Shown here piece after piece: positions 1,768-21,895 of a stretch of 64,000 nucleotides of DNA (the stretch's first letter is position 1; every line of letters begins with the position of its first letter). The DNA is from an uncultured Actinomycetota bacterium. GTDB taxonomy: Bacteria > Actinomycetota > Acidimicrobiia > Spongiisociales > UBA5794. The translations under genes and the position numbers were made by a program. Location of the stretch: NCBI GenBank assembly GCA_963836085.1, contig CAWIHT010000014.1, positions 7,187 through 71,186 on the forward strand. Reading direction: 5' to 3'. The notes below the pieces were generated by a model that worked only from the letters and a program-made list of their open reading frames with translations, did no database searches and had not been told where the DNA came from.

Positions 1768-1789
1768 CATTCCGGTTCCCGCGCTGCAC

Positions 1790-2480: not shown

Positions 2481-2667
2481 CGGTTCCTCATCGATGGGAA
2501 CGCGGCGCTTCTGTCGGCGGTGATCCAACAGTCGACAGGTCACAAATGCCAGGCTGGCATTTCAGCGCCAACTACCCATAGGCGCGTCGAGTGGAAGGGC
2601 GTACGATGGGGGAAGATGGCGGGGTCTCGGAAGAGACGCGTGGGGGTTCATCACGCGGGAGTTTTCC

Positions 2668-4427: not shown

Positions 4428-4429
4428 CT

Positions 4430-5074
4430 GTGAACACTGTCGTGCTTGCGGACGGCCTCGAGACCTACCCGGTGGCGACCTATCCGAGCAACGGCGGGTG
4501 GTATTCGGAATGGAGCGGGCGTGAAGCGTACGCGTCCGACGCGTATGCCTCCAGCGGTCACCAGAGCTTCCGCCTATCCGGGTTTGGCGGATGGGTTCGC
4601 ACCGACGCACTCGCCCTTGATTTGTCGGCAGCAATGAGCCTCACCACGAAGTGGCCGTGTACTGCTCGTCCGAATATATCAACTGCGCCGAAGTCGGCTT
4701 CTCGTGAGAACGAAATCGAACGAGAGTTGGGCGTACAACTCATTCCATTTCCACGAGAACCGCCACCAATCAACGTGAAAGGCACCGGCCCGCGTATCGG
4801 CGGCCCACCGGGCGCCGACGAAGTCGATACGGGCCTCGTGTGGGAGTACGACCGTTGGTATCTCCTTCGTGCCGACATCGACTTCGCGGAGGGCACCGTC
4901 GATTTCTGGATCGACGGCAAGCAGGTTGCCGAGGACCTGATCGCAGCTCCCAGGGAAGCGACGGGCATCTTCCAGCTGTCCACCAACTATGGCTACGAGG
5001 ACGCCGCGGTCTACTTCGACTACATCAGTGTCGAGATCGTGACCCGCCGGGAGAGCAATCACGCACAGGTCTGA
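4430..5074 (+). CDS. hypothetical LamG/concanavalin-like protein, probably internally frameshifted
   Basis: The C-terminal 'WYLLRADIDFAEGTVDFWIDGKQVAEDL...AAVYFDYISVEIV' is typical of LamG-like jelly-rolls. The middle of the ORF reads poorly, while an alternative frame gives 'HHEVAVYCSSEYINCAEVGFS'. Confidence 0.35.
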   Translation: MNTVVLADGLETYPVATYPSNGGWYSEWSGREAYASDAYASSGHQSFRLSGFGGWVRTDALALDLSAAMSLTTKWPCTARPNISTAPKSASRENEIERELGVQLIPFPREPPPINVKGTGPRIGGPPGADEVDTGLVWEYDRWYLLRADIDFAEGTVDFWIDGKQVAEDLIAAPREATGIFQLSTNYGYEDAAVYFDYISVEIVTRRESNHAQV

Positions 5075-5321
5075 CACCGTGCGACGCTACCGACGCATGG
5101 ACCTCCGGATGCTGACGAGACGGGAGCGTGGCCCGCGGTTGTAGCGTCCTCGCCGGAGTGCGTCTGGATGTCGCCTGTGGAATGCGGCCTGGCAGCGTCT
5201 CCGGTCGGAATCGCAGCGCCTCGGACTTCTACCGAGCCTCAAAGAGCATGCAAACCGGACCCTCACCGCCCGACCTAGGCGTGCAACGCCAGCCACATCA
5301 TCCCTCCCAGCGAGACAGGGG

Positions 5322-7593
5322 CTACCGGAACGCTCGGTGGAGGAACGCTGCCATCTGACCCCGGGTCACATTCCCTTTCGGACAGAATCGGTCATTGGCC
5401 GGAGGGTTGCAGCCTTTCGTCACCCCAGCGTCCCAACCGGTCGATGTCGCCCTCGAAGACGCTGTCATCGTCGTCCGTGAATCGGTCTCCGCCACCGTCA
5501 TCGGTGTAGCCCAAGGCCCGGACGAGGAACGCTGCCATCTGTTCCCTGGTCACTCACCATCGGGACAGAACCGATCGTTCGCGGGCGGGTTCAGCCTTCG
5601 TGATACCGGTGGCCGATAGCCACGCGATGTCGACAGCGAAGGTAGAGACGTCATCGTCGGTGAAGTCGATCGGGTCGCCCGTTGGCTTGACGATGCCCTC
5701 CAGGGCACGATGGAGAAAGGTGGCCATCTCGCCGCGGGTACGACGGCGTCGGGGCAGAACCGGTCGTTGAACGGCGGATTGCAGCCTCTCGTGATTCCGG
5801 CCGCCGCCAACCACTCGATGTCGGCCTCGAACACCGAGCCGTCATCATCGCCGAAGCTGTCCGCACTCGGGTCCACGACGACGTCGAGGGGTCCGCCTAT
5901 GTCAACTACGTTCACCGTCACCTCGGCATCGATATCGTGGATCCCGTCGGACACCGTCACCGTTGCCGTGTGCTTGGTAGCGGTCTCGTAGTCCAGGCTT
6001 CCAATCAGGCTCACCGTCCCGGTCGTAGCTTCCACCTCGAGCAGTCTGCGCGTTGCCGGCAGTTATCGCATACGCCAGTGGATCGCCGTCAGGATCGCTC
6101 GCCTCGATCGCGCCGATCACGCCCAAGGACGTGTTTCGGGAAGCGATACCGTCAAGGCCTGGACGTGGGGCGGGATCCCGCAACGGTGTAGTTATGGGTC
6201 ACCGTTCGTGCATTTCTGGCTATGTCTGTCCAGCGACTTCGAAAACGTGAGCACCAGTCGTCGATGTGTCGATGGCAACCACACTCGACCGGTCCGACAG
6301 GACAGAAGGCCCGATCCGGCATCGCTGCACACGTAGCTAGCTATGACAACGGAATCGCGTCCGTACGTGGCCCCATCCGATGGGCTCACGATCGACACGG
6401 TCGGCCAGCATCGGCGAACACATGAACTGCCCCTCTGCGGCTGCCGGCTGCATCGTCGCCAGCAGCGCCAGCCACGATCCAACCGCTGTCCATCGCTACT
6501 GAGCCACCCAGACTGTCTTCAGCCGCGGCATTTGGATCGGTCAACTTGTGCACGTGCACCCAGTCTTTTTTTGACGACCCGGGCAAAGACGTGGACCACG
6601 CTATGTCAGTCGTCGTCGCCCACAGCTCCCGCCACCATCACATCACCCTGGATCGCGACCGACGCCCGCCCAAGAAGTCACCGTACTCGGGGCTGGGATG
6701 AACCAGTACCTGTTCTTGTCCCCAATGCCCAGTGATCGAATTCAATCTGAACACATGAACAGCACCTTCGACAGCAACGGCGTTGTATTGCCGAAAGCAC
6801 CGGCGACGATGCGATCGCCCTCGATTCCCACCGATTCGCCGAGTTGGGCTCCAAGGACGGCATCCTGTGTCGGTCAATTCCTGCTCATGCATTCTACATC
6901 TGGCTGGTCCAGGCGTCGAGGCTGAACAGATCAACGGCCCCTTCATTCACACTGCCGCCATCGTCGCCAGGAGCGCCGAGGACAATGCGGCCGTCGCAGA
7001 CAGCCACCGAAGAGCCGAGGAAATCGTTGTCTGCAGCAGTTGGATCGGCGAGGACTTGATCATGCTCCCAAACGCCGGTACCCGTATTGCGCAGTGAACA
7101 CATGCACGCCAGCCACGATCACGTCGCCCTGGATCGCCACCGTTGCACCAAGAGGATCCCCCTCCATACCCCCGGGCTTGGTCAGCTTCTGGTCGAATTC
7201 CCAGTCTCCAGTTGCAGAATCAGGCCGGAATACATAGAGGGAACTGGCGCCGGGGGTCCCGATAACGATCCGATCAGCATCGATCGTCACGGCCTTGCCG
7301 AAGAAGTCGTTCCAGTCGGTCTCCGGATTCGTCAACCGCTGATCGTGTTCGAACTCGCCGGTGGAAGGACTGCGGGTGAAGATGTGTGCCTCCCCCGGGC
7401 TCTCCTCGCCGCCGTAGGCGCCTGCAACGATCACATCTCCAGCGATTGCAACCGAGAGGCCCAATGCAGCCCAGTCCGCCGGGTCCGGGTCCGTCAACTC
7501 GGAATCATGCGCCCACGGTGAATCGGTCGCACTGAAAATTCCCGCGCCGACCACCCAACCCACCAGGGCTAGCAGTGCGACGATCAACATCAT
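5322..7593 (-). pseudogene. multiply frameshifted surface protein: signal anchor, FG-GAP-like repeats, cadherin-like domain, three Cys-containing SLH-like repeats
   Basis: ORF 7060..7662 has 'MMLIVALLALVGWVVGAG' plus repeated 'G.SVAI.GDVIVAGA...HIF / GKAVTIDADRIVIGTPG...LYVF'. The same repeat type continues in other minus frames (6894..7103, 6638..6946, 6386..6586). 'DPDGDPLAYAITAGN' and 'SLIGSLDYETATKHTATVTVSDG' follow, then three 'ITRGCNPP..RFCP..VTRG.MA.FL.RA' repeats with indels (e.g. 'ITKAEPARE' where ITKGCNPPAN is expected). The stop after '...AAFLHRAFR' is at 5322-5324. Confidence 0.6.
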
Positions 7594-8064
7594 CGGCCGC
7601 TCACGGATGACTGATCCATTCGCACCGCGTCCATCGACTACCCCAATCATCCCACTCCACACGCATCCTGGCTACGGGAGAATCGCGGAATATCACCGAG
7701 GATCGGCCCCGATCGGCGTCTCCCGCGCCACCGCATCGACAATCGACCCTTGCCCATGTCGGCAGCACACAAGAATGAGACACGACCGTCAGCAGGTCGA
7801 TCGCAATGACACAAGAGCGCGTTGGCGGATCTCGCTGGAGCCTCGATCCTGCAGCGAACCAACAGCGTCAGCCCGAATCCGCCCGGTTGATGGTTCGCAA
7901 CGCTGTTGACAAGAAGCGTGGCTCTGCCGATGCCTGGTAGCAACGCAGCCACCCTTTGCTCGGATGGCAGCGCTACGGGCGATAGACTTCGTGGCACGAG
8001 GACGCGACAAAGTCGGATTGCGCCTGGGGGCTGGCGCTGACCTCACCCGCCGTCGCAGCCAGAT

Positions 8065-9285
8065 CTAGCCAGCGCCTCCGCTGGTGAGTGAGTAGACGAG
8101 GCGTTCACTGTCGTCGAAGGAGAATGTATTGCCGAGCAGCATCACCAAGTCAACGGCATCGTCGGTGCTGACGGACCAGCAGACATTGCCCGAGATCACG
8201 CCGCTCGGGAACGTCTCACCGGCCTCATCGATGGCGTCGGGATACACCCCACACGTCGCCTCGAATGCCTCGTACGCGACAGCCGATGGCCCCACGGCCT
8301 TCCACTCCATGTCAATCCAGAAGCTCCCCGACTCGGCCCCCGTGTACTCGGCTTCGAGAGTCGCGACAAAGAACTGATTGCCCTCAACAGGCGGATCATT
8401 GAACGAATTCTCAGCCATGACAGCTTCGGTGGCATCAGGTATCACGTCGATGACCCGAATCTTCCAGTCACCCACCTGAGCAAACTCGCCAACTTCGACG
8501 GCTGGGACCTGTGACAGGTCGGCGGACGCGCCCTCGCTAGGTTCGACCGGTGTCATCTCGGGATCCAGGTCGTATACGGTGCGTTCGCTGTCGTCGAATG
8601 AGAATGTGTTGTCGAGGAGCATCACCAAGTCAGCGGCATCATCCGCGCTGACGGACCAGCAAACACCGCCGGCAATGACGCCGCTTGGGAATGTCTCGCC
8701 AGCCTCATCGATGCTGCCAGGGAATACTCCGCAGGTCGCCTCCCACGCCTCGTACGCGACAGCAGATGGGCCCACCGCCTTCCACTCCATGTCGACCCAG
8801 AAGTTGCCCGATTCGGTACCGGTGTACTCGGCTTCAAGCGTGGCGACGAAGAACTGATTGCCTTCAACAGGTGGATCGTTGAACGAATTCTCAGCCATGA
8901 CAATGTCGGTGGCATCAGGTATCACGTCGATGACCCGAACTTTCCAGTCACCCACCTGAGCAAACTCGCCTGCCCGAATGGGAGATTCGAACGTGCCGAC
9001 TTCGTCGTCTGCGGTGGTGGTAGTTGCTTCGGCAGCCGTTGTCGACGTGGTTGTTGTGGCCGACTTGCCATCGGCCCCACCTGATGCTTCCGCCAGTGAG
9101 GTCGTGGATTCGCCGGAGCCAGCGTCACCGGTGGAGGTTGACGGGTCTGCGCTTCCCCCACAGGCAGCGACAAACATCGACAACACGACAACCACCGAGA
9201 CCCACCACCCTCGATGCCGGCGCTTCGATGCTGTCTCTTCAACAGGTGAGATGCTTTTCGCCACGGTGTGCCTCCAGGCCTGCAT
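8065..9285 (-). CDS. lipoprotein with two tandem DUF4352-like domains
   Basis: Signal/lipobox 'VVVVLSMFVAACGG', a Thr-rich linker, then two ~150-aa near-identical modules ('GEFAQVGDWK(V/I)RVIDVIPDAT..VMAENSFNDPPVEGNQFFVATLEAEYTG...'). Confidence 0.8.
   Translation of the reverse strand: MQAWRHTVAKSISPVEETASKRRHRGWWVSVVVVLSMFVAACGGSADPSTSTGDAGSGESTTSLAEASGGADGKSATTTTSTTAAEATTTTADDEVGTFESPIRAGEFAQVGDWKVRVIDVIPDATDIVMAENSFNDPPVEGNQFFVATLEAEYTGTESGNFWVDMEWKAVGPSAVAYEAWEATCGVFPGSIDEAGETFPSGVIAGGVCWSVSADDAADLVMLLDNTFSFDDSERTVYDLDPEMTPVEPSEGASADLSQVPAVEVGEFAQVGDWKIRVIDVIPDATEAVMAENSFNDPPVEGNQFFVATLEAEYTGAESGSFWIDMEWKAVGPSAVAYEAFEATCGVYPDAIDEAGETFPSGVISGNVCWSVSTDDAVDLVMLLGNTFSFDDSERLVYSLTSGGAG
8101..8980. 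repeat. intragenic tandem duplication (period about 480 bp, two copies)
   Basis: 8101-8500 aligns base-for-base with 8581-8980, with scattered substitutions. Long identical runs include 'gaacgaattctcagccatgaca' and 'ggtggcatcaggtatcacgtcgatgacccgaa'. Confidence 0.9.
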
Positions 9286-9611
9286 GGTCGTTCAGACGTA
9301 GTCTTGCTGTCCATCGGCAGGCCTGTAGCCGACCATCAGAGCCGTTCGGCCCTTCGTGTTGCAGATTGGTCGGGTCGCATCTCTCTGGGACGCAAGACAT
9401 ACGTCAGCCACCGACCGGAAACCGTGTCGACGGTCTGTCCTCGCTGCCCATTCTCAGTGTCCCGGGAGAAGAGGCCGCGCTGCGGCGCGGGCCGTCTTCC
9501 CAGTCGCTGCCCAAAGGCCATTCCCCCCTTAAGCCTCTGGTCGCCAGAACTCGGTGAGCCAGGCTGTAGGTATCGTCGGCAGCGTTGCCAGAACAAGGAA
9601 GGGAGCATGCA

Positions 9612-10790
9612 GTGCGGAGGATTCTTCTCGCGGTGCTGGGCGTCGGCTTGAGCGCTGTGATGGTCGGCGCTGCATTGGCGGCGTTGCCGCCAGGTGGCAC
9701 CTTCACGGATGATGACGGCAACGTCCACGAACCGAACATCGAGGCGATAGCCGCCGAGAGCATCACGAAGGGGTGCAACCCGCCAGCGAACAGTCGCTAC
9801 TGCCCGGGCAGTTCGTTGACCCGGGGCCAGATGGCAGCCTTCGTGCGGCGTGCACTCGACCTTCCGGCGTCGAGTATCGACTACTTCATCGACGACAACG
9901 ACTCGGTGTTCGAAGGCGATATCAACGCACTTGCCGAAGCGGGGATCACCAGGGGCTGCAACCCGCCAACAAGCGATCGGTATTGCCCAGACGGAAGCAT
10001 CACTCGAGAGCAGATGGCAGCGTTCCTCCGACGCGCCTTCGACTACCCGGCTTCCGCAGGCGACTTCTTCACCGACGACGACGACTCGATCTTCGAAGCC
10101 GACATCAACGCCATTGCTGATGCCGGTGTCACGCTCGGCTGCAATCCCCCAGGCAACACTCGATATTGCCCATCGGACCTCGTGAAGCGGGATCAGATGG
10201 CGTCGTTCTTCGCCCGCGCCCTCGGTCTGAAGCCGATCTACCCGCCGCCACCAACGACGACGACCAGCACGACCACCACTCGACCGCCGACCTACACCAC
10301 GTTCGGCCCCGGCACACACCGCGTTGGTATCGACATCCCCGCGGGCACCTACCGAAACAGTGGCGACTTGTCCGGCTGCTACTGGGAACGACTCTCTGGC
10401 TTCGGCGGCACGTTCGACGACATCATCGCCAACAACTTCACGAACGTTCGACAGATCGTCGAGGTGAAGGCGTCAGATGCCGGGTTCAAGCCGGACGGAG
10501 ACTGTGGGCAGTGGTCGAGCGACCTGCGACCAGCCAAGGCTCCGACGGCGGGATTCGGAGGCGGCACCTGGCAAGTACCGAGCGAGGTGTCCCCTGGACT
10601 CTGGAGGAACACCCCAAGCGAAGCCGGATGCTACTGGGAAAGGCTTGACGGCTTCTCCGGCGAGTTCGACGACACCATCGCAAACGACTTCATCTCTGAC
10701 AAGGCATCGACCATCGTTCGCGTGGAAGCGAGCGACACTGGCTTCGGCGTTGATGAGGACTGCGGGGCCTGGACCTACCTGGGTCCGTGA
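9612..10790 (+). CDS. secreted protein: signal peptide, three Cys-containing SLH-like repeats, Thr/Pro linker, two 'CYWERL' C-terminal modules
   Basis: A GTG at 9612 lies 6 nt after 'GGAAGGGAG' (the track ORF starts at TTG 9585). Three 'ITxGCNPP...YCP...(T/K)R.QMA.F..RA' repeats are followed by a duplicated ~70-aa module with 'GCYWERL.GF.G.FDD.IAN.F'. Confidence 0.85.
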   Translation: MRRILLAVLGVGLSAVMVGAALAALPPGGTFTDDDGNVHEPNIEAIAAESITKGCNPPANSRYCPGSSLTRGQMAAFVRRALDLPASSIDYFIDDNDSVFEGDINALAEAGITRGCNPPTSDRYCPDGSITREQMAAFLRRAFDYPASAGDFFTDDDDSIFEADINAIADAGVTLGCNPPGNTRYCPSDLVKRDQMASFFARALGLKPIYPPPPTTTTSTTTTRPPTYTTFGPGTHRVGIDIPAGTYRNSGDLSGCYWERLSGFGGTFDDIIANNFTNVRQIVEVKASDAGFKPDGDCGQWSSDLRPAKAPTAGFGGGTWQVPSEVSPGLWRNTPSEAGCYWERLDGFSGEFDDTIANDFISDKASTIVRVEASDTGFGVDEDCGAWTYLGP

Positions 10791-10818: not shown

Positions 10819-11808
10819 TCAGGCGTGGTAGACCTGCCGGCCGGGAATGGCACCACGCACGCCACCGGCGGGATTGGGCACATCTCCCGCCCGTCGGGGA
10901 ATCAGGTGCGTATGCACGTGCCCGATGGTTTGCCCTGCAGCAACACCGTCGTTAACGCCGATGTTGAATCCCGCGACGGTCGGATCGATCACCTGAATCG
11001 AGGACCGGGCTGCCTGCACTAGCTGATCCACAGCAATCGCCTCTGGTCGGGTCAGGTCGAAGCTTGACGCTACGTGGCGTTTGGGGATTGCGAGCGTGTG
11101 CAGCGGCGTGACCGGGAACGCATCGCGGATGGCGAATGCCAAGCGATTCTCATCAACAACTCGCTCAGACACCTCAAAGCAGAATGCGCACCCCGCCTCT
11201 CGTTCCTCATAGACGGCATCAACCTTCCGGAAGTCGACGTCGTCTCGGTTGCCCTTGCTCTGATTGCACCGATAGCAAAGTGCCTGGAGATTATCGGTGT
11301 CATCGGGACCGCCGCGTGATCGCGGCATGATGTGATCGACCTCCAAGAATCGTTCGTCAGCTGGTACTCCGCACAACTCGCAGCGGAAGCGAGCGCTCTT
11401 CAGAACCTCATACCGTGCCGATCCGGGGATGTATCCTGATGTTCGGGCTCGGTGGCCCCATATCTCCTTGCCTCGCCGTTCGACGTAGTCGTCGAGGCGC
11501 GCCCTGCAGAGTTCCGTCAGATTGGCGAGCTGCTGGTCGTCCAGGTCAGCAAAGCCCCGCAAGACGTAGGAATCCCCGTCCTTGGCCACAACATTGTGCT
11601 TCCGAAGCACGCGGCCCGGCATCTGATTGACGATCCGCCGGTAGTAGTCGACTTGGCTTCGATCGTGCAAGACAAAGGCTGTGGCAATCTGCGCGACCGA
11701 CGCCGAGCCATTGCGTCGCAGAAGCTCCAGGAGCATCACCGGTTGATAGATGTGCGACATCCTCATTCGGTTTGCAACGAAGTCAGCTAGATCGTCGTAG
11801 TCCGCCAT
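10819..11808 (-). CDS. wHTH - HNH endonuclease - HIT hydrolase fusion protein
   Basis: Internal ATG at 11808 (MADYDDLADFV...). HNH: 'CELCG...VDHIMPRSRGGPDDTDNLQALCYRCNQSKGN'. HIT histidine triad: 'GHVHTHLIPRR'. The N-terminal 'SHIYQPVMLLELLRRNG...' resembles a winged-helix DNA-binding module. Confidence 0.8.
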   Translation of the reverse strand: MADYDDLADFVANRMRMSHIYQPVMLLELLRRNGSASVAQIATAFVLHDRSQVDYYRRIVNQMPGRVLRKHNVVAKDGDSYVLRGFADLDDQQLANLTELCRARLDDYVERRGKEIWGHRARTSGYIPGSARYEVLKSARFRCELCGVPADERFLEVDHIMPRSRGGPDDTDNLQALCYRCNQSKGNRDDVDFRKVDAVYEEREAGCAFCFEVSERVVDENRLAFAIRDAFPVTPLHTLAIPKRHVASSFDLTRPEAIAVDQLVQAARSSIQVIDPTVAGFNIGVNDGVAAGQTIGHVHTHLIPRRAGDVPNPAGGVRGAIPGRQVYHA

Positions 11809-12071: not shown

Positions 12072-12785
12072 ATGCATCGCATGCAACCCGGCGACGTGAT
12101 CTCATACCTTGAAATGTGCACCAGAGAAGGGGCCTCGCTTCAGCGTGGAATGAACTTCCAGCTCGGTACCGATCACAGTGTGGTCCTGATGAGTGTTCGT
12201 CCTGGTGCCCCCTATCACGATGAGGTCATCGACGAGGGTCGAACGCTCATCTACGAGGGCCATGATGAACCGAGCTCGTCCCGCGTGCCAGATCCGAAGA
12301 TTGCCGATCAGCCACTCCGGACTCCGAACGGAACGCTCACGCAAAACGGCCGCTTCTATCGGGCAGCGGAGAGCTACCGGAATGGAAACAGTGCGGCCGA
12401 ACGAGTGCGCGTCTACGAGAAGGTCCGCCAGGGGATTTGGGTGTACGCGGGGCTCTTTCACCTTGTGGATGCCTGGCTTGAGGAGTCAAATGGACGGCGG
12501 GTGTGCAAGTTCAAGCTCTCGCTCGTCGAGGGCGCACTCGACATGGACCTTCCGGACGACGAGGGCCGTATCCAGGATCTCGCACACACTCGGGTCATCC
12601 CCACGCATGTGCGCCTAGCGGTTTGGGCCCGGGACCGGGGCCAATGTGTGGAATGCGCGGCAACGGAGAACCTGCATTTCGACCACATCATCCCATACTC
12701 CAAGGGTGGCTCGTCGCTCACCGCTGAGAACGTCCAGCTCCTGTGCGCCCGACACAATCTGGCGAAACGGGATCACATCGGGTAG
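12072..12785 (+). CDS. SRA/PUA-like modified-base-reader domain fused to HNH nuclease (putative type IV, modification-dependent restriction enzyme)
   Basis: The C-terminal HNH is 'CVECAATENLHFDHIIPYSKGGSSLTAENVQLLCARHNLAKRD'. The N-terminal ~160 aa has an SRA-like layout ('SVVLMSVRPGAPYHDEVIDEGRTLIYEGHD...DQPL...VRVYEKVRQGIWVYAGLFHLVDAW'). An alternative start lies at 12081. Confidence 0.7.
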   Translation: MHRMQPGDVISYLEMCTREGASLQRGMNFQLGTDHSVVLMSVRPGAPYHDEVIDEGRTLIYEGHDEPSSSRVPDPKIADQPLRTPNGTLTQNGRFYRAAESYRNGNSAAERVRVYEKVRQGIWVYAGLFHLVDAWLEESNGRRVCKFKLSLVEGALDMDLPDDEGRIQDLAHTRVIPTHVRLAVWARDRGQCVECAATENLHFDHIIPYSKGGSSLTAENVQLLCARHNLAKRDHIG

Positions 12786-12889
12786 ACGCCAGATCTAGGT
12801 CGCCGCCGAGTTGCGCGACGCTCGCGCAGCGGGCCGAGACAGTGTCTGGGAGTGCCAGCGCAACTGGCGGTCGAACTCCCCGTGTCCGT

Positions 12890-13399
12890 CTACGACTCGC
12901 ACCCAATTCCGTCCTTGTCCCCATCGAAGCGATGCGGGTCCGGGGGAAGGACCGTGAACCGCTTTCGACTGATGTCGCCACAGTTCAAGTCCGGCGGTGA
13001 CGGCGGAATGCAGAAGTCCGGATACGACGGGTGACAGTTCTGCTGGACTGTGGTGGTGGTCGTGGGAGCCGCAGTAGTTGTGGTTGTAGGCGGTGTCGTC
13101 GTCGTGGTTGTCGGAGGAATCGTGGTTGTGGTCGTTTGAGCAACAGTGGTGGTCGTTACTGGGGCAGTGGTGGTCGTCACTGGGGCAGCAGTTGTCGTGG
13201 TAGTCGGAGCAGAGGTCGTTGATGCCGGTTCGGACGAAGTCGTCGCAATCGGCACGGCGGCGGCAACCGGCGCTGGCTCGACGGCTCCCGATCCGCTTTC
13301 GCCGATGAGACCCCCCGCCACACTGAGTGCGACAACCCCTCCAGCGACGCCCATCGCAGACTTCTGCCAGACGCTTCGATTGCCCCACCAGGTGGACAT
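12890..13399 (-). CDS. membrane-anchored protein with Thr-rich linker and C-terminal Excalibur calcium-binding domain
   Basis: N-terminal TM 'AMGVAGGVVALSVAGGLI', a long T/P tract, and a C-terminal 'DPHRFDGDKDGIGCES' matching the Excalibur DxDxDGxxCE signature. Confidence 0.75.
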   Translation of the reverse strand: MSTWWGNRSVWQKSAMGVAGGVVALSVAGGLIGESGSGAVEPAPVAAAVPIATTSSEPASTTSAPTTTTTAAPVTTTTAPVTTTTVAQTTTTTIPPTTTTTTPPTTTTTAAPTTTTTVQQNCHPSYPDFCIPPSPPDLNCGDISRKRFTVLPPDPHRFDGDKDGIGCES

Positions 13400-13881
13400 C
13401 AGATCTCGCCTGCGAACGATCGGTTCAGGTGCGGTTCCATTGATGTGCTATCGGCATCAAGGAGGCAGATAGTGAGGTCATCGCTGAGAATGCCGGTATG
13501 ACCTGGACCAATCGACAGCGAGAGACCGGTCGCTACCGCTTCTCGGCACTCCCCCGCACCTCGTTCTGCTGGGTACCGAGCGGCGTTCTCCTCGAACTTG
13601 GCCCAGAAGGCGTCGTTCAAGTCGATCTCGAGAAGGTCGGCAATACGCACGACGTACTGCAGGATGTCGACGAGTTCCTCGCCGACATGCTGGAGCACCT
13701 GCCCGTCGACGTCTCCCGACTCGCCTGGAGTCAGCCATTGGAAGATCTCGAGCAATTCGCCCACCTCGCCGGCGAGCGCCATCGAGAGGTTCTTCGGGGT
13801 GTGAAACTGCTCCCAGTCGCGTTCGGCGGCGAAGACTCGTAGGTGTTCAGCCACCTTGTTCAGATCCAACGGCTCGGTCAC
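13399..13881 (-). CDS. MazG-like all-alpha NTP pyrophosphohydrolase (dCTP pyrophosphatase-1-like)
   Basis: 'FHTPKNLSMALAGEVGELLEIFQW...VGEELVDILQYVVRIADLLEIDL...NAARYP'. The GTG start overlaps the DUF2075 stop (GTGA, 13878-13881). The last ~45 aa look unnatural. Removing one base from the C5 run at 13550-13554 gives '...YPAERGAGSAEKR*' ending at 13532, the usual family length. Confidence 0.8.
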   Translation of the reverse strand: MTEPLDLNKVAEHLRVFAAERDWEQFHTPKNLSMALAGEVGELLEIFQWLTPGESGDVDGQVLQHVGEELVDILQYVVRIADLLEIDLNDAFWAKFEENAARYPAERGAGECREAVATGLSLSIGPGHTGILSDDLTICLLDADSTSMEPHLNRSFAGEI

Positions 13882-15830
13882 GCCTCCACCTCCTCCGCTA
13901 CCCCGGCTCCCTGTTCTGCCGCCGCCGCGTCCGCGAACATACTGCGACGCACCGCTTGGAAGTCGACCCTCGACTCGAAGAACTTCCGGGTCGGCTCATC
14001 TTCGAAGTAGATGTAGCAGCCCTTCATACCTCGGGTCAGGAGAACCCGATATGTCTGCTTGACAAGTTCCGTGAATCGGTCGTCGTCCTTCTCTCGCTTG
14101 ACCATGCTGTCCTTCGAGAACTCTCGCTGCCCGATCCAGCCCTCGCGGCCTCGATGCACGAGGTCCCTGCCGAAGATGACGCCTACGTAGTCGACTTCGA
14201 ATCCCTGGGCTGTGTAGACACAGCCCACTTGATCCAGACCTCCGGGTTCCGAGACCCAGAAGTCTGACTTCGGAATGCCCTTCGCGAGGCCCGTAGCACC
14301 GGACTTGGCGTTCCACGGCATCGACCAATCTGGCAACTGAACGTCATGTACGAGTGTGCCGTCGTCATTGGGGACTGACCACGGCCAGCAGAAGCCGGCG
14401 ACCAACCGCGCGGACTGGCCCGTCGCGGCCTTCTGGTTGATCAGCGCCTGGAGTTCCCCAGGCGAATCGACAATGTCGAAATCGAAGGCGGCGTCACCCT
14501 CCCACAGAACGCTCGTAGTCCGGCGAAGGTCCAGCGTGTTGTCGACCCAGGAGACGAATCCGTCGGACCCTCCGCATCGGAACTGAATGTCGAGCTCGTA
14601 CTCCAAGAGCTCCGCACCCATCTTGGCTGCGTGGGACTTGATGAGATCCTTGCTCCCAACCTCGCCCGGCCGCACGACCTGGAGATCGTCAATGAAGAAC
14701 ACCGCCACCTTCGCAGTGTCGATCAGTTCCTCGATCTGGGGGCGGGTGGACCGGTTCGCCTTCTTGGTGAACCGATTGTTGCTGGACTCGCGTATCCGGT
14801 GAGCTTCGTCGCAGATCAATACGTCGAGGGTGTTCGGGTCGGCCGTGGCGTAGGTGTTGAAGTAGTTGAATTGGGCGGAGGCTTGCTTCCCGACCTTCTT
14901 GCGGATGTTCGAGGTGAAGGCTCTCGATCCCGTTGCATGCTGCGTGCTGTATCCGTTGGCGGATAGCTCTGCGACGAGGTTCAAGGCGATGACCGACTTC
15001 CCTGTGCCGGGCCCTCCGTCGACAATGAACACCGAGTTGCCAGCCTTCTGGTGTTGCTCGGCAACCTTGGCGATGACCGTGTTGAACACCACCTTCTGTT
15101 CATCGAGCAGGACGTACGTCGGTTCGCCCTTGATCATCTGTGCGGTGTGGTCGAGGAGCTTCTTCGAGGGGTGGTACTTGCCGGCCAGGATGCGGTCCAG
15201 CACCGGCACCCCGTTGCCACCTCCGAGCCGCTCGTCCAGGTGGGTCGCCAGTGACGAGATCTGGTCTCCGGTGAAGACGGGATAGACCTGCAGCAAATCG
15301 GCGTGACGTGGAGCGAACACCTCATCGTCGTCATCCCGGACCATGTTGTGCAGGAAGCTGCACGCCTGCAATCCGACCTCGTCCTCGGAGAACGTGCTGT
15401 GGGTGTCCTTCAGGTAGCGGTGATAGCCACCGACCTGCGCGGACGGATGGAGAACTTCACGCTTGCGTCCTCCAACGAACGTCAGCACACACTCCTCGGC
15501 CGTCGACGGCGACGACTCACTCCACTGCTTGAGTTCAACGATGACGGCGTTCGATCTGCCTTCTGGGGTCGTACCCGAGATGAGAACGTCGAGCCGGCGC
15601 GAGGCAAGCGGCAACTGCCACTCGACGACGACGCCGTGATCGTTGAGCCCGGCGAGTTGCACGGCATCAGCCATTGCCCGCAGCGAGTTGCGCCACGACG
15701 CCACCTCGCTCTTCGGCGCCTCGTACCGAAATGCCTGGACGAACGATGCGGAGACCTTGTCAGCGATCAGGTTCTGCGTGGCGTCGGAGACAAACTCGGT
15801 GGATGTGCCGGTGTAGAGATGCATCGGCAT
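13878..15830 (-). CDS. DUF2075-family (Schlafen-helicase-like) ATPase with N-terminal PD-(D/E)xK-like nuclease module
   Basis: 'RRLDVLISG...AVIVELKQW' is a nuclease-like D...ExK motif. Walker A is 'VDGGPGTGKS' and Walker B 'VLICDEAHR'. C-terminal 'YTAQGFEVDYVGVIFG...TYRVLLTRGMKGCYIYF' is typical of DUF2075. Confidence 0.85.
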   Translation of the reverse strand: MPMHLYTGTSTEFVSDATQNLIADKVSASFVQAFRYEAPKSEVASWRNSLRAMADAVQLAGLNDHGVVVEWQLPLASRRLDVLISGTTPEGRSNAVIVELKQWSESSPSTAEECVLTFVGGRKREVLHPSAQVGGYHRYLKDTHSTFSEDEVGLQACSFLHNMVRDDDDEVFAPRHADLLQVYPVFTGDQISSLATHLDERLGGGNGVPVLDRILAGKYHPSKKLLDHTAQMIKGEPTYVLLDEQKVVFNTVIAKVAEQHQKAGNSVFIVDGGPGTGKSVIALNLVAELSANGYSTQHATGSRAFTSNIRKKVGKQASAQFNYFNTYATADPNTLDVLICDEAHRIRESSNNRFTKKANRSTRPQIEELIDTAKVAVFFIDDLQVVRPGEVGSKDLIKSHAAKMGAELLEYELDIQFRCGGSDGFVSWVDNTLDLRRTTSVLWEGDAAFDFDIVDSPGELQALINQKAATGQSARLVAGFCWPWSVPNDDGTLVHDVQLPDWSMPWNAKSGATGLAKGIPKSDFWVSEPGGLDQVGCVYTAQGFEVDYVGVIFGRDLVHRGREGWIGQREFSKDSMVKREKDDDRFTELVKQTYRVLLTRGMKGCYIYFEDEPTRKFFESRVDFQAVRRSMFADAAAAEQGAGVAEEVEA

Positions 15831-16358
15831 GCGAGGTTAGTTGGAGGACTCGGTCTGATCACCGAGCACGGACCGAGTTCCACGCTTCTCGCCAGCAGCG
15901 TCGAGAAGGTGGATTCTCACGTCAGGCGGCCGTTGCTCGTCCATGGCACGTTGGGCGCCACTGCATCGATGGAAGCGAATGAAGTGTTGGCAAGGGAGGC
16001 TTGCCGCACCGAGCTCCTGAGGATGGTTGATGTGACCTCCCCGGCTTCGCCCCGTACTCGGGGGCCCGGTGGAGGCGGGTCGCGCAAGCTCCGCAACCGA
16101 TTCTTCGACCACGGAGGCCGCCAACTCCGGTGGGCCCAAGGCAGCAGACGATCCGCGCCCTTCCAATGGAAGAGTCCTCTCAGCCCGGTTGGCGCAACTC
16201 GAACCCCTGGTGTCCTGATCCGTAGCTCGGTAGCGAGACGAACCGGAAAGCCTCGGGATCACACAGATCGACCTGGTTCGTTTGATTCGATTCGGAGCCA
16301 ATCGCACCACAAAGCGAAAAGCAGGGGCACGACAAGAGAGAACTCCTAGCATTGTTGG

Positions 16359-17448
16359 GTGAGCGACACTGTCTGGGCACTCGAACCCCATACCCGTGCG
16401 AAGCACGAAATCCTACGCCGATACCTCGCCGCTTGGTACCCGATCATGGCGAGCAACCAGCTCAGAATCGTCTACCTCGACGGATTCGCGGGTCCGGGCG
16501 TGTACGAAACGGGTGAGGTAGGTTCACCGAATCATCGCGTTGGAGACTCTGCTGGACTCCGCAGCCTTGACCATGCCGGGGCGAGGGTTCACGTTCCTCT
16601 TCATGGAGGAACGAAAGGATCGGGCGGAACGTCTCGAAGCGGAGATCGAAACGCTGTGGTCACGCTCCGGAGCGAAACCAACGAACGTTGGCGTGGATGT
16701 CTGGAATACAACCTTTCAGCATGGTGTAGATGGCATCCTCGACATCCTGTCCGGCGAGCGGCTCGCTCCAACCTTTGCGTTTGTAGACCCGTTCGGGTGG
16801 TCCGGGGCACCGATGGAGGTGATGGCTGCTCTCCTGAACAGCAAGTGCGAGCTCCTCTTCACGTTCATCTACGATCAGACGAGTCGTTTCATTGGGCATA
16901 CCAACGAGAAGGTCATCGCCCACCTGGAAGGCCTCTTCGGTTCCTCAGGTTTCAGAGACGCATCTTCCCTCAGCGGCGAGGAACGAAAGCTCTCTCTCTT
17001 GGGACTGTTTGAATCCCAGCTACGGGATGACGCTGGGTTCGAGTATGTGCATTCGTTCGAGATGATCAACGAGCGCGGCAAGACCCCATACTTCCTCATC
17101 CACGCCAGCAATCACATCAAGGGCGCTGAGAAGATCAAAGACGTGCTCTGGAGTATGGACCCGACCGGTGACTTCACGTACTCGTCGTTGATCGATGGCC
17201 GGCAGATGCGTTTCAACGACGAGATCGACATTGGACCTCTCGTGGAAGCGATGACTCGCGAGTTCGGCGGTGGCTCGGCGCCGATCAGGACAGTGGAGGA
17301 CTTCGTTATCGGCGACACGCCGTTCGCCAAGAAGCATGCTCGACAGGCACTCAAGATCCTGGAAGCATCTGAGAAGATCACCGTCGCGAACCGTCGAAGG
17401 CGCAATACTTACCCACCAGGCAGTTCAATCACCTTTGGGCGGTTCTAG
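16359..17448 (+). CDS. tcmP: three-Cys-motif partner protein TcmP-like, with an apparent 1-nt frameshift near 16530
   Basis: The N-terminal frame reads 'WALEPHTRAKHEILRRYLAAWYPIM...VYLDGFAGPGVYETGEVGSP', then the frame of ORF 16540..17448 continues 'IIALETLLDS...FAFVDPFGWSG...'. An extra A in 'ccgAAtc' (16530-16531) separates the two. Family recognised from memory (TIGR04474-type). Confidence 0.7.
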
Positions 17449-17510
17449 GGCGACGGCGACGGCGCTGTGTCGGGGCCACTCAACTCAGCCATGCCAAGAG
17501 GGAGGCGCGG

Positions 17511-18260
17511 ATGAGCAAGACCGGAATCGAGTGGACCGAACACACCTGGAATCCCGTGACAGGCTGCGACAAGGTATCCCCGGGGTGCGACAACTGCTAC
17601 GCAGAGCGCATGGCCCATCGATTGCAGGCCATGGGTTCGAGTCGCTACGCAGACGCCTTCCAGTTGACTCTCCATGAGGACAAGATCGACGAACCGTTGC
17701 ACTGGGGCAAGCCGCGGATGGTGTTTGTCAATTCGATGTCCGACCTATTCCATCCCGCGATACCGGATGATTTCCTGTGGCGAGTGCTTGCGGTCATGTC
17801 GGAGGCCACGCGGCACACATTCCAAGTCCTGACGAAGCGGCCCCAGAGGGCAGCGCTGCTCCTCGAGGGTCAGCGGCTACCCGACAACATCTGGCTTGGT
17901 ACGAGCATCGAAACTGAGACATATGCATTTCGAGCCGACCACCTACGAAGAGTGGCTGTGGCGACACGCTTCCTCTCTTGCGAGCCACTGCTAGGACCTT
18001 TGAGCAACCTCGATCTGAGTGGCATCTCCTGGATCATCGTCGGAGGAGAATCAGGCCCGGGGCATCGGCGGATGCAATCGGCGTGGGCACGCGATCTTCG
18101 AGACCAGGCGACCGCATCCGGTACCTCATTCTTCTTCAAGCAGTGGGGCGGTCACACGTCCAAGGCAGGCGGTCGAAACCTTGATGGCCGCGAGTGGCTC
18201 GAGTTGCCCACCGTGCGCGGGCGGCACGCAACTCAATCTCAGGCGGCTTCCAACCGATAG
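17511..18260 (+). CDS. DUF5131 / phage Gp37-Gp68 family protein (N-terminal three-Cys motif)
   Basis: 'IEWTEHTWNPVTGCDKVSPGCDNCYAE', 'VFVNSMSDLFH', 'FQVLTKRP', 'FLSCEPLLGPL...WIIVGGESGP...FFFKQWGG' match the family hallmarks. Confidence 0.85.
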   Translation: MSKTGIEWTEHTWNPVTGCDKVSPGCDNCYAERMAHRLQAMGSSRYADAFQLTLHEDKIDEPLHWGKPRMVFVNSMSDLFHPAIPDDFLWRVLAVMSEATRHTFQVLTKRPQRAALLLEGQRLPDNIWLGTSIETETYAFRADHLRRVAVATRFLSCEPLLGPLSNLDLSGISWIIVGGESGPGHRRMQSAWARDLRDQATASGTSFFFKQWGGHTSKAGGRNLDGREWLELPTVRGRHATQSQAASNR

Positions 18261-18313
18261 CAAGGCATGAACACCTCGCCGACGCCCACAGAAGTGATCT
18301 CGGGCACAACACT

Positions 18314-19467
18314 ATGAACATTGTCGCGATCGTCGGCAATGGTGCCTCAATCGTCTACAACCCTTCCTTCGCCCTCGGAGCGCTCACCTATGAGGTGCTC
18401 GATCGATTCAGCAGCGAGAGCGTGAATGCCTTCACCGTGGAGCGAACCCTCTCTGATCTGGCCCGGGCAGCTCGAACTTCGGGGTTGAGCGACGGGTTGT
18501 CTTTCGAGGAGCTGCTCGGGCCATTCGATCGAATGGCCGATGGAATCGATGCAATGCGAAACGTCGCTCGCTACGTGCCAGGCGGCCTCAGGTATCGTGA
18601 TGATCTCGAATCCGCGACGGTATTCGGACGAAAACTGTATCGCCGCTCGGTGGGCACGGCGCTCCAAGTGATCGCAGAACTGAGCCACGATCAGGGTCCT
18701 GATCCGCTAGCGGAGTCGGGCAAACTCATCGGGTACCTTGCAGACCTCGTATCGGGCGGTGGCGTTGTTCGGGCGTTCACGTTGAACTACGACTGCCTCG
18801 TTGATTCCGCTGCACTTGAGCTGCACGAAGATGCGCAATCACCAATCTGCCTGAGCGATATGGCTGACGGGAGGCATCAATCGGACATCGACATCCTCAG
18901 ATCAGGCGACTACAGATCAGCGTCGGCTCTCCCCCTCAGAAGCTCTGACGAGGAGTACCTCGGTGGACCTTCGGCCATCGTCGTATACCACCTTCACGGC
19001 GCGCTCGACTGGGTTCGCGACCACAGTGGCAAGGTCTGGAAGATCAAATCTGTCGATCACCTGCGAGCGGCCAACTTCTGGCATCGGTATCCGCGAGGCG
19101 GCGCATTGGTCTCTCCTGTCGTTGTTCTCACAGATCAGAAGGCGCACTACATCGAGGGTGACCCGTTCGCATGGGCCTACCGGAGGCTTCCGTACGGTGT
19201 TGGGACCTCAGCGACGTGCCCCCTGACCTCGTGCTTATTGCTGGCTATGGCTTCGGAGACCTACCACTGAACCTCGCCCTCGCCGAAACCCTCCCTCTGA
19301 CCAACTGCCCCATCGTGGTGATAGGAAAGGCAGAGAGTCGGACAGGCCTGCGTCGAGTTGTCCTGAGCGGACTCGGGCTTCGGGGATCAGAGCAACGGTC
19401 CGTGGCCGGTCGTCTGCAAGTGCTGATTGAGGGCCTGCCGGACTCATTGTCTCAGATTCAGATCTGA
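18314..19467 (+). CDS. SIR2-like (SIR2_2/DSR-type) domain protein, with an apparent frameshift near 19202-19204
   Basis: Internal ATG at 18314: 'MNIVAIVGNGASIVY'. Motifs 'FTLNYDCLVDSA' and 'VVYHLHGALDW'. After 'AWAYRRLPYGVG' the sequence continues in the frame of ORF 19171..19467 ('DLSDVPPDLVLIAGYGFGDLPLN'). Adding one G to the GGG run restores one frame. Confidence 0.7.
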
Positions 19468-19977
19468 GTACCGGCAAAGGGTTGGGCGGGGAAACAGAAG
19501 GTCGGCCAAGACTCCTGGGTTGGAATGGGTCCAGCCTCTGGTCAGCCAATCTGGATGACGAGGCGCCTCGGATCGGGCCAGGGGCGCGGGAGAGGCGAGC
19601 GATTCCTCCTCGTCGAATGTGTCGACAAGGGTGGCACGACTAGCCTCGAAACTCGTCGTCAATCGTCCACCGCTAGGCCGCACCACAAGGAAACGCGTGA
19701 TGCCGTCCCAGAACCTTCTCCGTACGCAGGCTCCTTCATCCAACCACGCTTTTCGTCAGAAGCGTCGCATCAAGTTCCGATCGGCGGATCTGCTGTCGCC
19801 CAGCGCGCACGCCGGGAGTTGGACGTGACCTCAACCAAGTCAGCAACCGCCGAGTGACGCCACCTCAACTCCACCACTCAACGGAACACTGCCAAGGTCA
19901 GGGGTCTCGTGAGGTCTGGCAGTCAGTCCTGGCGCTGTGGGGATTGGTAGCCTCTGTTGAGCGATTGGAGGATCGCG

Positions 19978-21459
19978 ATGACCAGGCTGGAGATTCAGAA
20001 CCCGCGGACGGGGCGGTGGTCGGGTCGGTGCCGGTCGCAACTCCGGATGAGGTCCGAACTGCTGTCGAGGACGCTCGCGGGGCCTTCGTCGATTGGTCTG
20101 CGTTGAGCCACGCCGAGCGGCGACCGTTCCTGAAGGCGTTCAAGCGTGTCGTGGTCGCCAATGCAGACCACATCGCCGATGTGGTGTGTTCCGAGACGGG
20201 GAAGGACCGTGTCGACGCCTATACGAGTGACATCATGCCGGCGCTATCCGTCATGGATTACTACGCCCGGAAGGCCGGCGAGCTGCTCAAACCGGTCTCG
20301 GGGGGATGGTGGCCCTACCCCATGGTCAAGCGCTGGACCGAGTACCACCCACGAGGGGTGGTCGGGGCGATTACGCCGTGGAACGTCCCGTTCTTCCTGA
20401 CGATGCTCCCGGTGTTCACCGCGGTAGCGGCCGGCAACGGGGTGGTGGCCAAACCATCAGAGATCACCCCGCTCAGTGGGCAACTGTGTGTTGAGCTCGC
20501 CGCCGAGGCCGGGTTGCCGAAGGGTCTGATACGAGTCGTGCATGGAGCCGGGGAGACGGGGCAGGCCCTGATTGCTGCGCCGGTGGATATCGTGTGGTTC
20601 ACCGGTTCCACCGCCAACGGGCGCGCAGTGGCCGTCGCGGCGGCCGAGAGACTCATACCGGTCGTTCTTGAACTCGGTGGCAACGACGCGATGGTCGTTC
20701 TCGAGGACGCCGACCTGCGAGCGGCCGCCCAGTGCGCAGTGTGGGCGGCCACCTACAACGCCGGTCAGATATGTATGTCCGTCGAGCGGGTCTATGTCCC
20801 CGAGTCCGTCTACGAACCGTTCCTTGCCGAGATCGATGCGGCCATGGAGAACGTCGCCGCCGGTACAGGTGACAATAGAGGATGTCGGCGCCATCACCGA
20901 TCCCCGCCTACTCGACGTGCTCGACCGTCAACTCGCAGATGCTGTGGCCAAGGGTGCCGAGATCCGATGGGGTGGATCCCGGGTCGAAGGAACCGAGGGG
21001 ACCTTCTTCGCACCCACCGTGCTGACAAAGGTGGATCACTCGATGGACCTGATGCAGGGGGAGACTTTCGGTCCGGTGCTGCCGGTCATGGCAGTGCCGG
21101 ACGAGGACACCGCTCTGCAGCTCGCAAACGCAGGGAGCTTCGGGCTGCATGGATCTGTGTGGTCGGCGGACAAGAAGCGCGCCGCGAGATGGGCCTCCAA
21201 GATCGAGTCCGGAACTGTGGCCGTGAACGATCACCTCATCAATCCCTTCATCCCGGACCTCCCGTTCGGGGGGATCAAGGACTCGGGCTACGGCCGAGAA
21301 CTGGGACCAGAAGGGATTCGAGAGTTCTGCTACATCAAGAGCATCACTTCACCGCGGCTGATTCCCACGACACGACTGTTGGGCGGCTTGCGATGGATGC
21401 CGCGTCGGCTCGGAGCCCGGTACTGGCGAGCCGTGGCGAAATCGCTATTCCGCTGGTGA
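19978..21459 (+). CDS. aldehyde dehydrogenase family protein, with two apparent frameshifts (about 20010-20013 and 20874-20875)
   Basis: The ATG at 19978 lies 5 nt after GGAGGA ('MTRLEIQNPRTG'), then the frame shifts to 'AVVGSVPVATPDEV...'. Motifs 'ELGGNDAMVV' and 'NAGQICMSVERVYV'. The second frame reads 'IEDVGAITDP...GETFGPVLPVM...FGLHGSVWS...PFGGIKDSGYGRE'. Confidence 0.85.
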
Positions 21460-21895
21460 CCGGGCCACCATCGGGGTGTCTGGCGGTTCTTCCCGGTGCG
21501 AGAGCAGTATCAGAGCTGCGCCGAGATTCACAACTCAAACGAAGCGCCTGATGCGAGAGAGTCTTCGCATGAATCCCGAGAGGCCTCTGGCATCACCTGC
21601 GCAAGCGTTTCGTCTCGACGCCTGCCCCCAAGGTGGCGCTCATCACGCCGCAAGCAGGAAGTGGCGGAACATCTACACCCTGTCGGAATCACCGACGGGC
21701 CACGGGGTGTCCGGCAGCGGCACCGGAAGGACGATCTGGCCGGGCGATGAAGCGGCTCAAGGGACCGGCCGGGCTGGTGGCGACCTGGCATTCGTCGATG
21801 CGCTCGACGCGCCGTACGAGGTGGGACAGTGGTGTGTCGGGTACGGGTACTGGCTGGGAGATCGGTCATCCGCGCCGGATCACGTGTGAGCCCAT

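Follow-up and report, generated by a model that had tools for sequence, protein, structure and literature searches.

Comparison with described defence proteins

Immunity by a single protein that joins a nuclease to a helicase has been validated for Nhi of Staphylococcus epidermidis (SERP2475) and for Nhi-like (Millman et al. 2022). AbiO and PDC-S41 are likewise proteins with a DUF2075 helicase core, and are catalogued as defence or candidate defence. Here we describe a locus from an uncultured Actinomycetota bacterium (GenBank assembly GCA_963836085.1, contig CAWIHT010000014.1) in which the gene for a DUF2075 nuclease-helicase overlaps the gene for a DCTPP1-like MazG protein. The whole stretch of DNA analysed comprises 64,000 nucleotides and is referred to as the window; all positions are counted from its first letter. 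The nuclease-helicase half of this two-gene module is of an already known kind, as Nhi, Nhi-like and AbiO are DUF2075 defence proteins. New are the conserved DCTPP1-like partner and the recurrent tie to type IV restriction on an Nhi-like nuclease-helicase. The domain identities, the intact catalytic motifs, the conserved coupling of the two genes and the recurrent type IV neighbourhood are established by the comparisons reported below.

The DUF2075 protein of the window shows the same domain order as Nhi and Nhi-like, with a (here putative) N-terminal nuclease of the PD-(D/E)xK type followed by a DUF2075 helicase of superfamily 1B (SF1B), Nhi-like being compared by its described architecture. 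Dda, Upf1 and DNA2, the three structural homologues named for the staphylococcal Nhi, are all found among its Foldseek neighbours. The PADLOC models were compared with the proteins of the window itself. The Nhi model matches the DUF2075 protein at the P-loop region only (residues 238-394, E=2.3e-12), and the protein is therefore not an Nhi orthologue. The match to AbiO is also partial (residues 238-391, E=2e-11). PDC-S41 is of similar length (657 model positions), with a match that covers the 77 C-terminal residues 532-608 (E=2e-15). Both AbiO and PDC-S41 are single-gene entries without MazG, and neither a coupled MazG nor recurrent type IV neighbours have been reported for Nhi, unlike what we observe for the DUF2075 family of the window.

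The group III Schlafens (SLFN5/11/13/14), which are antiviral and genome-guardian factors too, carry a helicase domain of the same Pfam family, PF09848, and structure comparison ranks SLFN11 and SLFN14 high among the matches of the window protein, although sequence similarity to the SLFN structures is too low for a hidden Markov model match. By Pfam, the window protein lacks the N-terminal Schlafen core, a tRNA nuclease, and it has a PD-(D/E)xK-like domain instead.

No PADLOC model matches the MazG protein of the window, and none describes a DUF2075-MazG pair. Our literature search, outside of which lay subscription-only papers and the newest DefenseFinder models, returned no account that pairs DUF2075, Nhi-like or prokaryotic Schlafen proteins with MazG; the sole relevant account on MazG and defence islands concerns a different MazG system. 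In the accessible parts of the DefensePredictor study (Science 2026), a MazG nucleoside triphosphate pyrophosphohydrolase is predicted as a defence component. The partners of MazG in the systems described there are a MazG-C kinase, NMAD, UDG and domains of that sort rather than DUF2075, and as far as its supplementary files reach, MazG and DUF2075/PF09848 do not occur together in any of them.

The DUF2075 nuclease-helicase

The DUF2075 gene is the core gene of the module. PF09848 (SLFN-g3 helicase, formerly DUF2075) matches residues 266-611 of its product with E=5.8e-91, and the family comprises 1351 clusters at 50% identity (E<=1e-30). The window protein was aligned with 16 full-length homologues that share 58-91% identity. 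The nuclease motif R79-L-D81...E99-L-K101-Q-W103 is invariant in these 17 sequences, as are the Walker A motif G272-G-P-G-T-G-K-S, the Walker B motif D341-E-A-H-R and the SF1 motifs YTAQGFE and YRVLLTRG. Residues D64/H65 and E70 of the N-terminal domain also form invariant columns. The AlphaFold model of the whole protein has a predicted local distance difference test score (pLDDT) of 74.6, and its best Foldseek matches in the PDB include RecD2, SLFN11, SLFN14, Dna2, Dda and Upf1, and also PriA. Run as a profile against solved structures, the DUF2075 alignment gave just a P-loop match to HelD. NCBIfam holds no meaningful family for either the DUF2075 protein or MazG, and the E. coli genome, searched with an enterobacterial homologue (locus L038 of our comparison), contains no match.

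The N-terminal 236 residues have no Pfam match. In an AlphaFold2 model of this part (pLDDT 87), D81 lies on the strand formed by residues 80-87, and E99 and K101 lie on the next strand, residues 93-101. Placement of the D and the ExK on consecutive strands is the usual layout of the PD-(D/E)xK fold. Foldseek returned weak matches only for the domain (E>=0.04), several of which are PD-(D/E)xK nucleases: Can2, EndoMS, N.BspD6I and Shedu. The nuclease assignment thus rests mainly on the invariant motif.

Other domains accompany the nuclease-helicase in some relatives. Full-length relatives from the library of 50%-identity clusters (P0306, P0381, P0292, P0296 and P0338) carry N-terminal fusions to an N6 DNA methylase, a NACHT domain, a caspase (Peptidase_C14), a domain of the PNP_UDP_1 phosphorylase superfamily and DUF4365. 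Such fusions are typical of immune or conflict proteins. A C-terminal LexA-like Peptidase_S24 domain of about 170 residues is seen in the homologues of L017, L018, L019, L022, L024, L038, L055 and L062. Two of these were checked by Pfam (PF00717; L018, E=1.7e-6; L038, E=4.9e-5), and in the remaining six the domain is deduced from similar GxSMEP-type tails. Its presence hints at regulation through self-cleavage or a RecA/single-stranded DNA signal.

The DCTPP1-like MazG partner

The TGA stop codon of the DUF2075 gene (13880-13878) overlaps the GTG start codon of the MazG gene (13881-13879) as GTGA, and a GGAGG sits a few bases upstream of this GTG. In phmmer, the MazG protein matches mouse RS21-C6/DCTPP1 (2a3q/6sqw) with E=2.2e-22 and human DCTPP1 (7mu5) with E=6.7e-22. 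Residues E39, E42, E69 and D72 align with the metal-binding residues E63, E66, E95 and D98 (mouse numbering), so that the ExxE...ExxD residues are identical. All four are invariant in the 52 module-linked MazG sequences aligned, which comprise the window protein and 51 from related loci. The core is about 50% identical to DCTPP1 by a manual count of the alignment, and some sources label the homologues 'dCTP diphosphatase'. Pfam scores on the uncorrected open reading frame (ORF) are weak, 25.7 bits for PF12643 against a cut-off of 27 and 22.4 for PF03819 against 22. The protein is best classified, from its residues and homology, as a bona fide DCTPP1-type enzyme. It differs from eukaryotic DCTPP1 in being prokaryotic, only 115 residues long and encoded in an operon with a nuclease-helicase; a preference for dCTP and 5-modified dCTP is predicted.

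As read, the MazG ORF (13399-13881) encodes 160 residues, about 45 more than any of the 51 homologues, all of which end at around 105-125 residues and none of which has the extended tail. The tail usual in the family, ...EVRGSAEKR, is encoded one frame over and followed by a TAG at 13535-13533. One extra A at about 13564/13565 accounts for the shift. The corrected protein of 115 residues has homologues of the same length at 86-88% identity over 100% of its length, and the C-terminal ...RGSA... tail shared with DCTPP1 is recovered. Since the corrected gene stops at 13533, about 133 nucleotides separate it from the next gene downstream on the same strand, which encodes a membrane protein with an Excalibur-type motif. 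The closest relative of the locus (L081), whose DUF2075 protein is 91% identical to that of the window, carries a spacer of similar length after MazG. A translational coupling of MazG to the Excalibur gene (TGATG at 13399) was considered and rejected as a frameshift artefact on the basis of the 51 homologues and the corrected protein.

The MazG gene of L081 contains two indels, and the Excalibur gene of this relative has indels too. Three genes within 8 kb of the window are frame-broken: MazG (about 13564-13565), TcmP (about 16530) and an aldehyde dehydrogenase. The TcmP gene is spread over ORFs 16359-17012 and 16540-17448, with a PADLOC match that begins at model position 119; the aldehyde dehydrogenase is split between ORFs 19854-21551 and 20572-21459. 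Few long ORFs are present at 1130-3470 and 4280-8060. Given three broken genes in 8 kb and the indels in the MazG gene of L081, the likeliest origin of the frame breaks is indel errors in a (long-read) assembly rather than real pseudogenes.

These results bear on a preliminary description of the locus made from its sequence. Its DUF2075 protein with PD-(D/E)xK-like, Walker A and Walker B motifs, the GTGA overlap at 13878-13881 and the DCTPP1-like nature of MazG are all confirmed, and the Pfam search that it proposed supports the first of these clearly and the last one near the cut-offs, on a broken ORF. The 160-residue MazG gives way to one of 115 residues. The Excalibur membrane protein does lie on the same strand and has its motif, but it does not directly abut MazG, and its proposed membership of the module fails, as described below with the neighbouring genes.

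Conservation of the gene pair

The DUF2075 alignment was used to scan GTDB genomes, one for each species. This survey confirmed 557 relatives, of which the best 80 were kept; all counts out of 80 refer to these. Their DUF2075 proteins are 38-65% identical to that of the window and come from Actinomycetota, Chloroflexota, Bacillota, Bacteroidota, Pseudomonadota, Acidobacteriota, Elusimicrobia, Omnitrophota and others, as well as from Thermoplasmata, Methanosarcinales, Woesearchaeota and Thaumarchaeota. A MazG homologue, searched for with a MazG profile, is present in the fetched flanks of 49 of the 80 loci and is immediately adjacent to the DUF2075 gene in about 45.

The commonest layout places MazG upstream on the same strand, with its stop codon overlapping the DUF2075 start by 4 nucleotides. 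Both gene orders occur, and pairs on the same strand mostly show a 4-nucleotide overlap or a gap of at most about 40 nucleotides. In the clade of the window, MazG lies downstream with a 4-nucleotide overlap in L002, L004, L007 and L049; the same overlap is found in L081 and L089. It follows downstream after a gap of 5-38 nucleotides in L020, which belongs to the clade of the window, and in L038, L068 and L080. MazG is on the opposite strand in L001, L003, L073 and L076. DUF2075 homologues are rare in phage genomes; of the six full-length DUF2075 matches on viral contigs, four come with MazG as a pair.

Pairwise distances of the two proteins correlate (r=0.39; 0 of 2000 Mantel permutations reach this value), with a contribution from shared species phylogeny. 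A moderate correlation of this kind fits frequent co-inheritance with some exchange of partners. Genomes carry one or two copies of a DCTPP1-like MazG at most, and by a rough estimate chance adjacency is therefore expected in far fewer than one of the 80 loci. The suggestion that the two genes owe their adjacency in the lineage of the window to chance has in its favour only that each family is also found alone. It is refuted by the 49 independent loci across phyla and domains that share the pairing, with a conserved overlap of stop and start codons.

When we sampled in the reverse direction, from MazG, one homologue (80% identical) again proved to share an overlap with a DUF2075 gene; its island also holds genes for a DUF4011 helicase, an SbcCD-like pair and a reverse transcriptase. 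Another MazG, 63% identical (L090:516-5351), overlaps by 17 nucleotides a McrB-N / McrC-like (DUF2357+PDDEXK_7) pair with no DUF2075 gene; these genes adjoin an NgoMIV restriction-modification system. The enzyme family is thus broader than the module, with only a part of it recruited. Two MazG copies lie near one DUF2075 gene in L017 (3671-4039 and 12777-13133) and in L043 (3162-3644 and 5611-5967). L017 also holds two PUA-like/HNH_2 genes, and its doubled MazG and HNH_2 genes suggest a local duplication or two stacked modules.

Association with modification-dependent nucleases

A targeted search within 3.5 kb of the DUF2075 gene found a nuclease of the modification-dependent type in 21 of the 80 loci, usually directly adjacent; this is a raw count. 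The reader domains are SRA, PUA-like, McrB-N and DUF3427, fused to HNH, PLD or McrC nucleases. In the window, too, the module lies beside a type IV-like gene, and a modified-cytosine theme is common to both. DUF2075 and MazG themselves have no modified-base reader domain (SRA, EVE/PUA, McrB-N or DUF3427) recognisable by Pfam.

The SRA-HNH endonuclease of L055 is 55% identical to that of the window (12072-12785) and its gene overlaps the 3' end of the DUF2075 gene. Overlaps between a type IV-like gene and the DUF2075 gene are also seen in L074, where McrB-N is fused to HNH, and in L017. A McrB(EVE)-McrC pair occurs in L045 and L041, and the gene order in L045 (1187-7869) is McrB-McrC-MazG-DUF2075. 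L008 encodes a HIT-PLD-SF2 helicase-DUF3427 protein, and L037 and L080 encode PLD-SF2-DUF3427 proteins. HIT homologues are found beside DUF2075 in L008, L017 and L035, as in the HNH-HIT fusion of the window. The Pfam scan of neighbours took in 239 of the 292 neighbouring ORFs, the other 53 belonging to L067-L080. The neighbour that ranks second in frequency is an HNH_2 nuclease-domain protein of about 310 residues, whose N-terminal half is without a Pfam match and may be read as PUA-like. Given the order in L045 and the coupling to McrB-N/McrC-like genes in L090 where DUF2075 is lacking, MazG may accompany modification-dependent restriction more generally.

An association of this kind has been noted before for McaZI, a modification-dependent restriction endonuclease (MDRE) adjacent to a DUF2075 NTPase, for which a joint assay was suggested; DUF3883 is fused to DUF3427 in enzymes of the McaZI group (Lutz et al., PMC6765204). 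In our data, a DUF2075 copy on a Streptomyces plasmid adjoins a DUF3883 protein, and plasmid homologues sit beside methyltransferases or restriction-modification genes and transposases. The mobilizable Hymenobacter canadensis plasmid NZ_CP114769.1 (L094:2904-6890) carries genes for a site-specific DNA methyltransferase and a DUF4747 protein, followed downstream by two DUF2075 genes in tandem; no gene there is annotated as MazG. The module of the window sits among genes for SRA-HNH, HNH-HIT, PDC-M30 and a SIR2-like protein. The vicinity of L081 contains SIR2_2, HNH_2 and an integrase fragment.

The preliminary description had regarded the pairing as no named defence system and had tied it to modified cytosines. 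The PADLOC and literature comparisons agree with the former point. The latter gains comparative support from the type IV-like nucleases in the survey and the SRA-HNH homologue in L055, and synteny of the pair extends well beyond close relatives, to species-level loci of bacteria and archaea with as little as 40% identity, in both gene orders. The observation is thus real with the two corrections given above, to the MazG length and to the Excalibur gene, and its interpretation is partly supported.

Proposed function and alternative explanations

We consider it reasonably probable, if far from certain, that the two genes form an immune module directed against phages or other mobile DNA, in which an Nhi-like nuclease-helicase is joined by a partner that hydrolyses dCTP or modified dCTP and is tied to type IV restriction. 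We infer the defence function, the substrates and the division of labour as follows. The DUF2075 protein, an SF1B helicase driven by ATP and bearing a putative PD-(D/E)xK nuclease at its N-terminus, would unwind and degrade invading DNA, acting either alone or after a type IV enzyme has recognised and nicked foreign DNA that contains modified cytosines. The translationally coupled MazG would produce the monophosphate from dCTP and, in particular, from 5-modified dCTP. This substrate is proposed on the precedent of DCTPP1, which has been linked to 5-methyl-dCTP metabolism and to the level of genome methylation (PMC4491611). Such an activity might cut off the precursor supply of phages whose DNA is made from modified dCTP. 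It might also block the re-incorporation into the host chromosome of modified deoxycytidine nucleotides released from degraded phage DNA; once incorporated, these would expose the chromosome to the cell's own type IV enzymes.

Several observations weigh against this proposal. MazG is absent from 31 of the 80 loci and is thus dispensable or replaceable. Three MazG proteins at 57-59% identity stand alone among housekeeping genes, so that defence is not an intrinsic role of the enzyme. The neighbourhoods are heterogeneous, and in the 80 loci many genes of the flanks serve ordinary metabolism or housekeeping. The MazG frame of the window is broken near its 3' end, either through a sequencing error or through a genuine lesion. 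Finally, the structural support for an N-terminal nuclease fold is weak.

The lone MazG relatives in housekeeping contexts would also suit a DNA-repair or nucleotide-pool hygiene module that processes damaged or stalled replication intermediates, while MazG removes damaged or non-canonical dCTP as a housekeeping function. DCTPP1-type enzymes are pool sanitisers, the LexA-like S24 domain of some DUF2075 homologues hints at a link to DNA damage and RecA, and the structural neighbours include Dna2, RecD2 and PriA. However, the spread of the genes across domains is patchy, with 40-60% identity between bacteria and archaea, as is typical of horizontally moving accessory genes, and the flanks are variable and rich in restriction genes. 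The fusions to NACHT, caspase and N6-methylase domains and the plasmid copies beside restriction-modification genes and transposases further speak against a repair function, which we judge unlikely. A small gene that tightly overlaps a large one by 4 nucleotides is reminiscent of toxin-antitoxin systems and raises the alternative of abortive infection, in which DUF2075 would be a self-damaging effector and MazG would restrain or trigger it through a nucleotide signal or through binding, not through modified dCTP. There is a weak PADLOC match to AbiO, and AbiO-type proteins have been proposed as self-damaging effectors. In E. coli, mazG belongs to the mazEF operon, whose toxin system it modulates by hydrolysing nucleotides. 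Yet the MazG of the window is of the single-domain DCTPP1 type, not of the E. coli MazG type. Its position varies, being mostly upstream, elsewhere downstream and on the opposite strand in four loci, and the 31 loci with DUF2075 and no MazG are hard to square with an essential antitoxin. A toxin-regulator pair therefore seems improbable to us.

The type IV-like nucleases near DUF2075 in 21 of the 80 loci, whose genes sometimes overlap it, could mean that DUF2075 is only an accessory motor of type IV restriction, a translocase or processing nuclease with no autonomous activity, and that MazG is a passenger. The proposal of Lutz et al. to test MDREs together with DUF2075 proteins (PMC6765204) points the same way. 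Against this, no type IV partner can be recognised within 3.5 kb in about 59 of the 80 loci, whereas MazG is present in 49 of 80, and Nhi and Nhi-like, which share the architecture, defend as single genes; we give this possibility little credence.

If the immune module that we favour is a defence system, it adds a pyrophosphatase as a new type of nucleotide-pool enzyme, besides dCTP deaminase and dGTPase, and would explain why MazG is found in the company of nucleases that degrade DNA or depend on its modification. It suggests a testable way in which cells with type IV enzymes keep recycled modified nucleotides from marking their own DNA. Given its human relatives (SLFN11-type helicases and DCTPP1), the module may also inform antiviral defence and genome surveillance. 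More tentatively, and with doubts of our own, we suggest that it could represent a widespread, as yet unnamed prokaryotic immune system in which the DCTPP1 orthologue is a nucleotide-pool firewall against both hypermodified-cytosine phages and self-marking of the host. If this were true, pool sanitation would be a general principle of self-protection for modification-dependent immunity, and Schlafen helicases and human DCTPP1 would share a prokaryotic immune ancestry. The pair is present in the cultured strains Parageobacillus caldoxylosilyticus NBRC 107762, Paraburkholderia sediminicola, Sphingobacterium arenae KCTC 32294 and Christiangramia crocea, and is thus directly testable.

Other genes in the window

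Table 1. Positions of the module genes and of neighbouring features in the window.
Feature	Position	Strand	Basis
DUF2075 / SLFN-group-3-type SF1B helicase with N-terminal PD-(D/E)xK-like domain, 650 aa	13878..15830	-	PF09848, homologues, invariant motifs, Foldseek
Putative PD-(D/E)xK nuclease domain, aa 1-236	15123..15830	-	Invariant D64/H65, E70, D81, E99-x-K101; AlphaFold2 model
DCTPP1-like all-alpha NTP pyrophosphatase (MazG-like), 115 aa after removing a 1-nt insertion	13533..13881	-	Homology, alignment
Frameshift-made extension of the MazG ORF, probably a non-coding spacer before the Excalibur gene	13399..13532	-	Tail without homologue
Membrane-anchored Thr-rich protein with C-terminal Excalibur-type DxDxDGxxCE	12890..13399	-	Motif; Pfam below cut-off
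SRA-HNH modification-dependent (type IV-like) endonuclease	12072..12785	+	Pfam SAD_SRA E=2.8e-9 and HNH
HNH-HIT fusion, likely start MADYDD at 11808	10819..11808	-	Pfam HIT E=2e-17, HNH E=2e-15
TcmP (three-Cys-motif partner, frame-broken) and DUF5131, PADLOC candidate PDC-M30/M41	16359..18260	+	PADLOC; NCBIfam tcm_partner

The Excalibur protein combines a hydrophobic helix at its N-terminus with a Thr-rich linker and the motif D-G-D-K-D-G-I-G-C-E. The Excalibur Pfam model (PF05901) scores 20.2 bits against a cut-off of 22, with model positions 24-36 covered. In tblastn, its N- and C-terminal parts match L081 only, with no convincing match in the other 86 loci compared, and the gene was rejected as a third component of the module. 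It is a lineage-specific neighbour outside the conserved module.

The first 140 or so residues of the HNH-HIT fusion have no Pfam match and may be read as a winged-helix DNA-binding domain. TcmP and DUF5131, which match PDC-M30A (E=1.4e-44) and PDC-M30B (E=3.6e-101) in PADLOC, are defence-island neighbours, divergent from the DUF2075 gene and outside the module. The ORF at 18194-19270 on the forward strand has weak SIR2-type PADLOC matches around ...VYHLHGALDW... and no Pfam match; L081 has a faint SIR2_2 gene on the same side of its module. This ORF is possibly a divergent SIR2 defence gene.

A tRNA scan of the window found none, and hence no integration site was identified. A scan of 12700-16600 for promoters and terminators returned no promoter-like sites, the method being uninformative for high-GC sequence of the actinobacterial type; the single terminator-like site in this region falls within the DUF2075 gene, on the opposite strand. 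On the reverse strand at 8065-9285, a secreted or lipoprotein-like protein with no confident family contains two near-identical repeats of about 170 residues (GEFAQVGDWK(V/I)RVIDVIPDAT...) after a Thr/Ala-rich linker. The protein encoded at 9585-10790 on the forward strand comprises three repeats with conserved Cys residues (weak SLH match), a Thr-rich linker and two C-terminal repeats (GCYWERL...).

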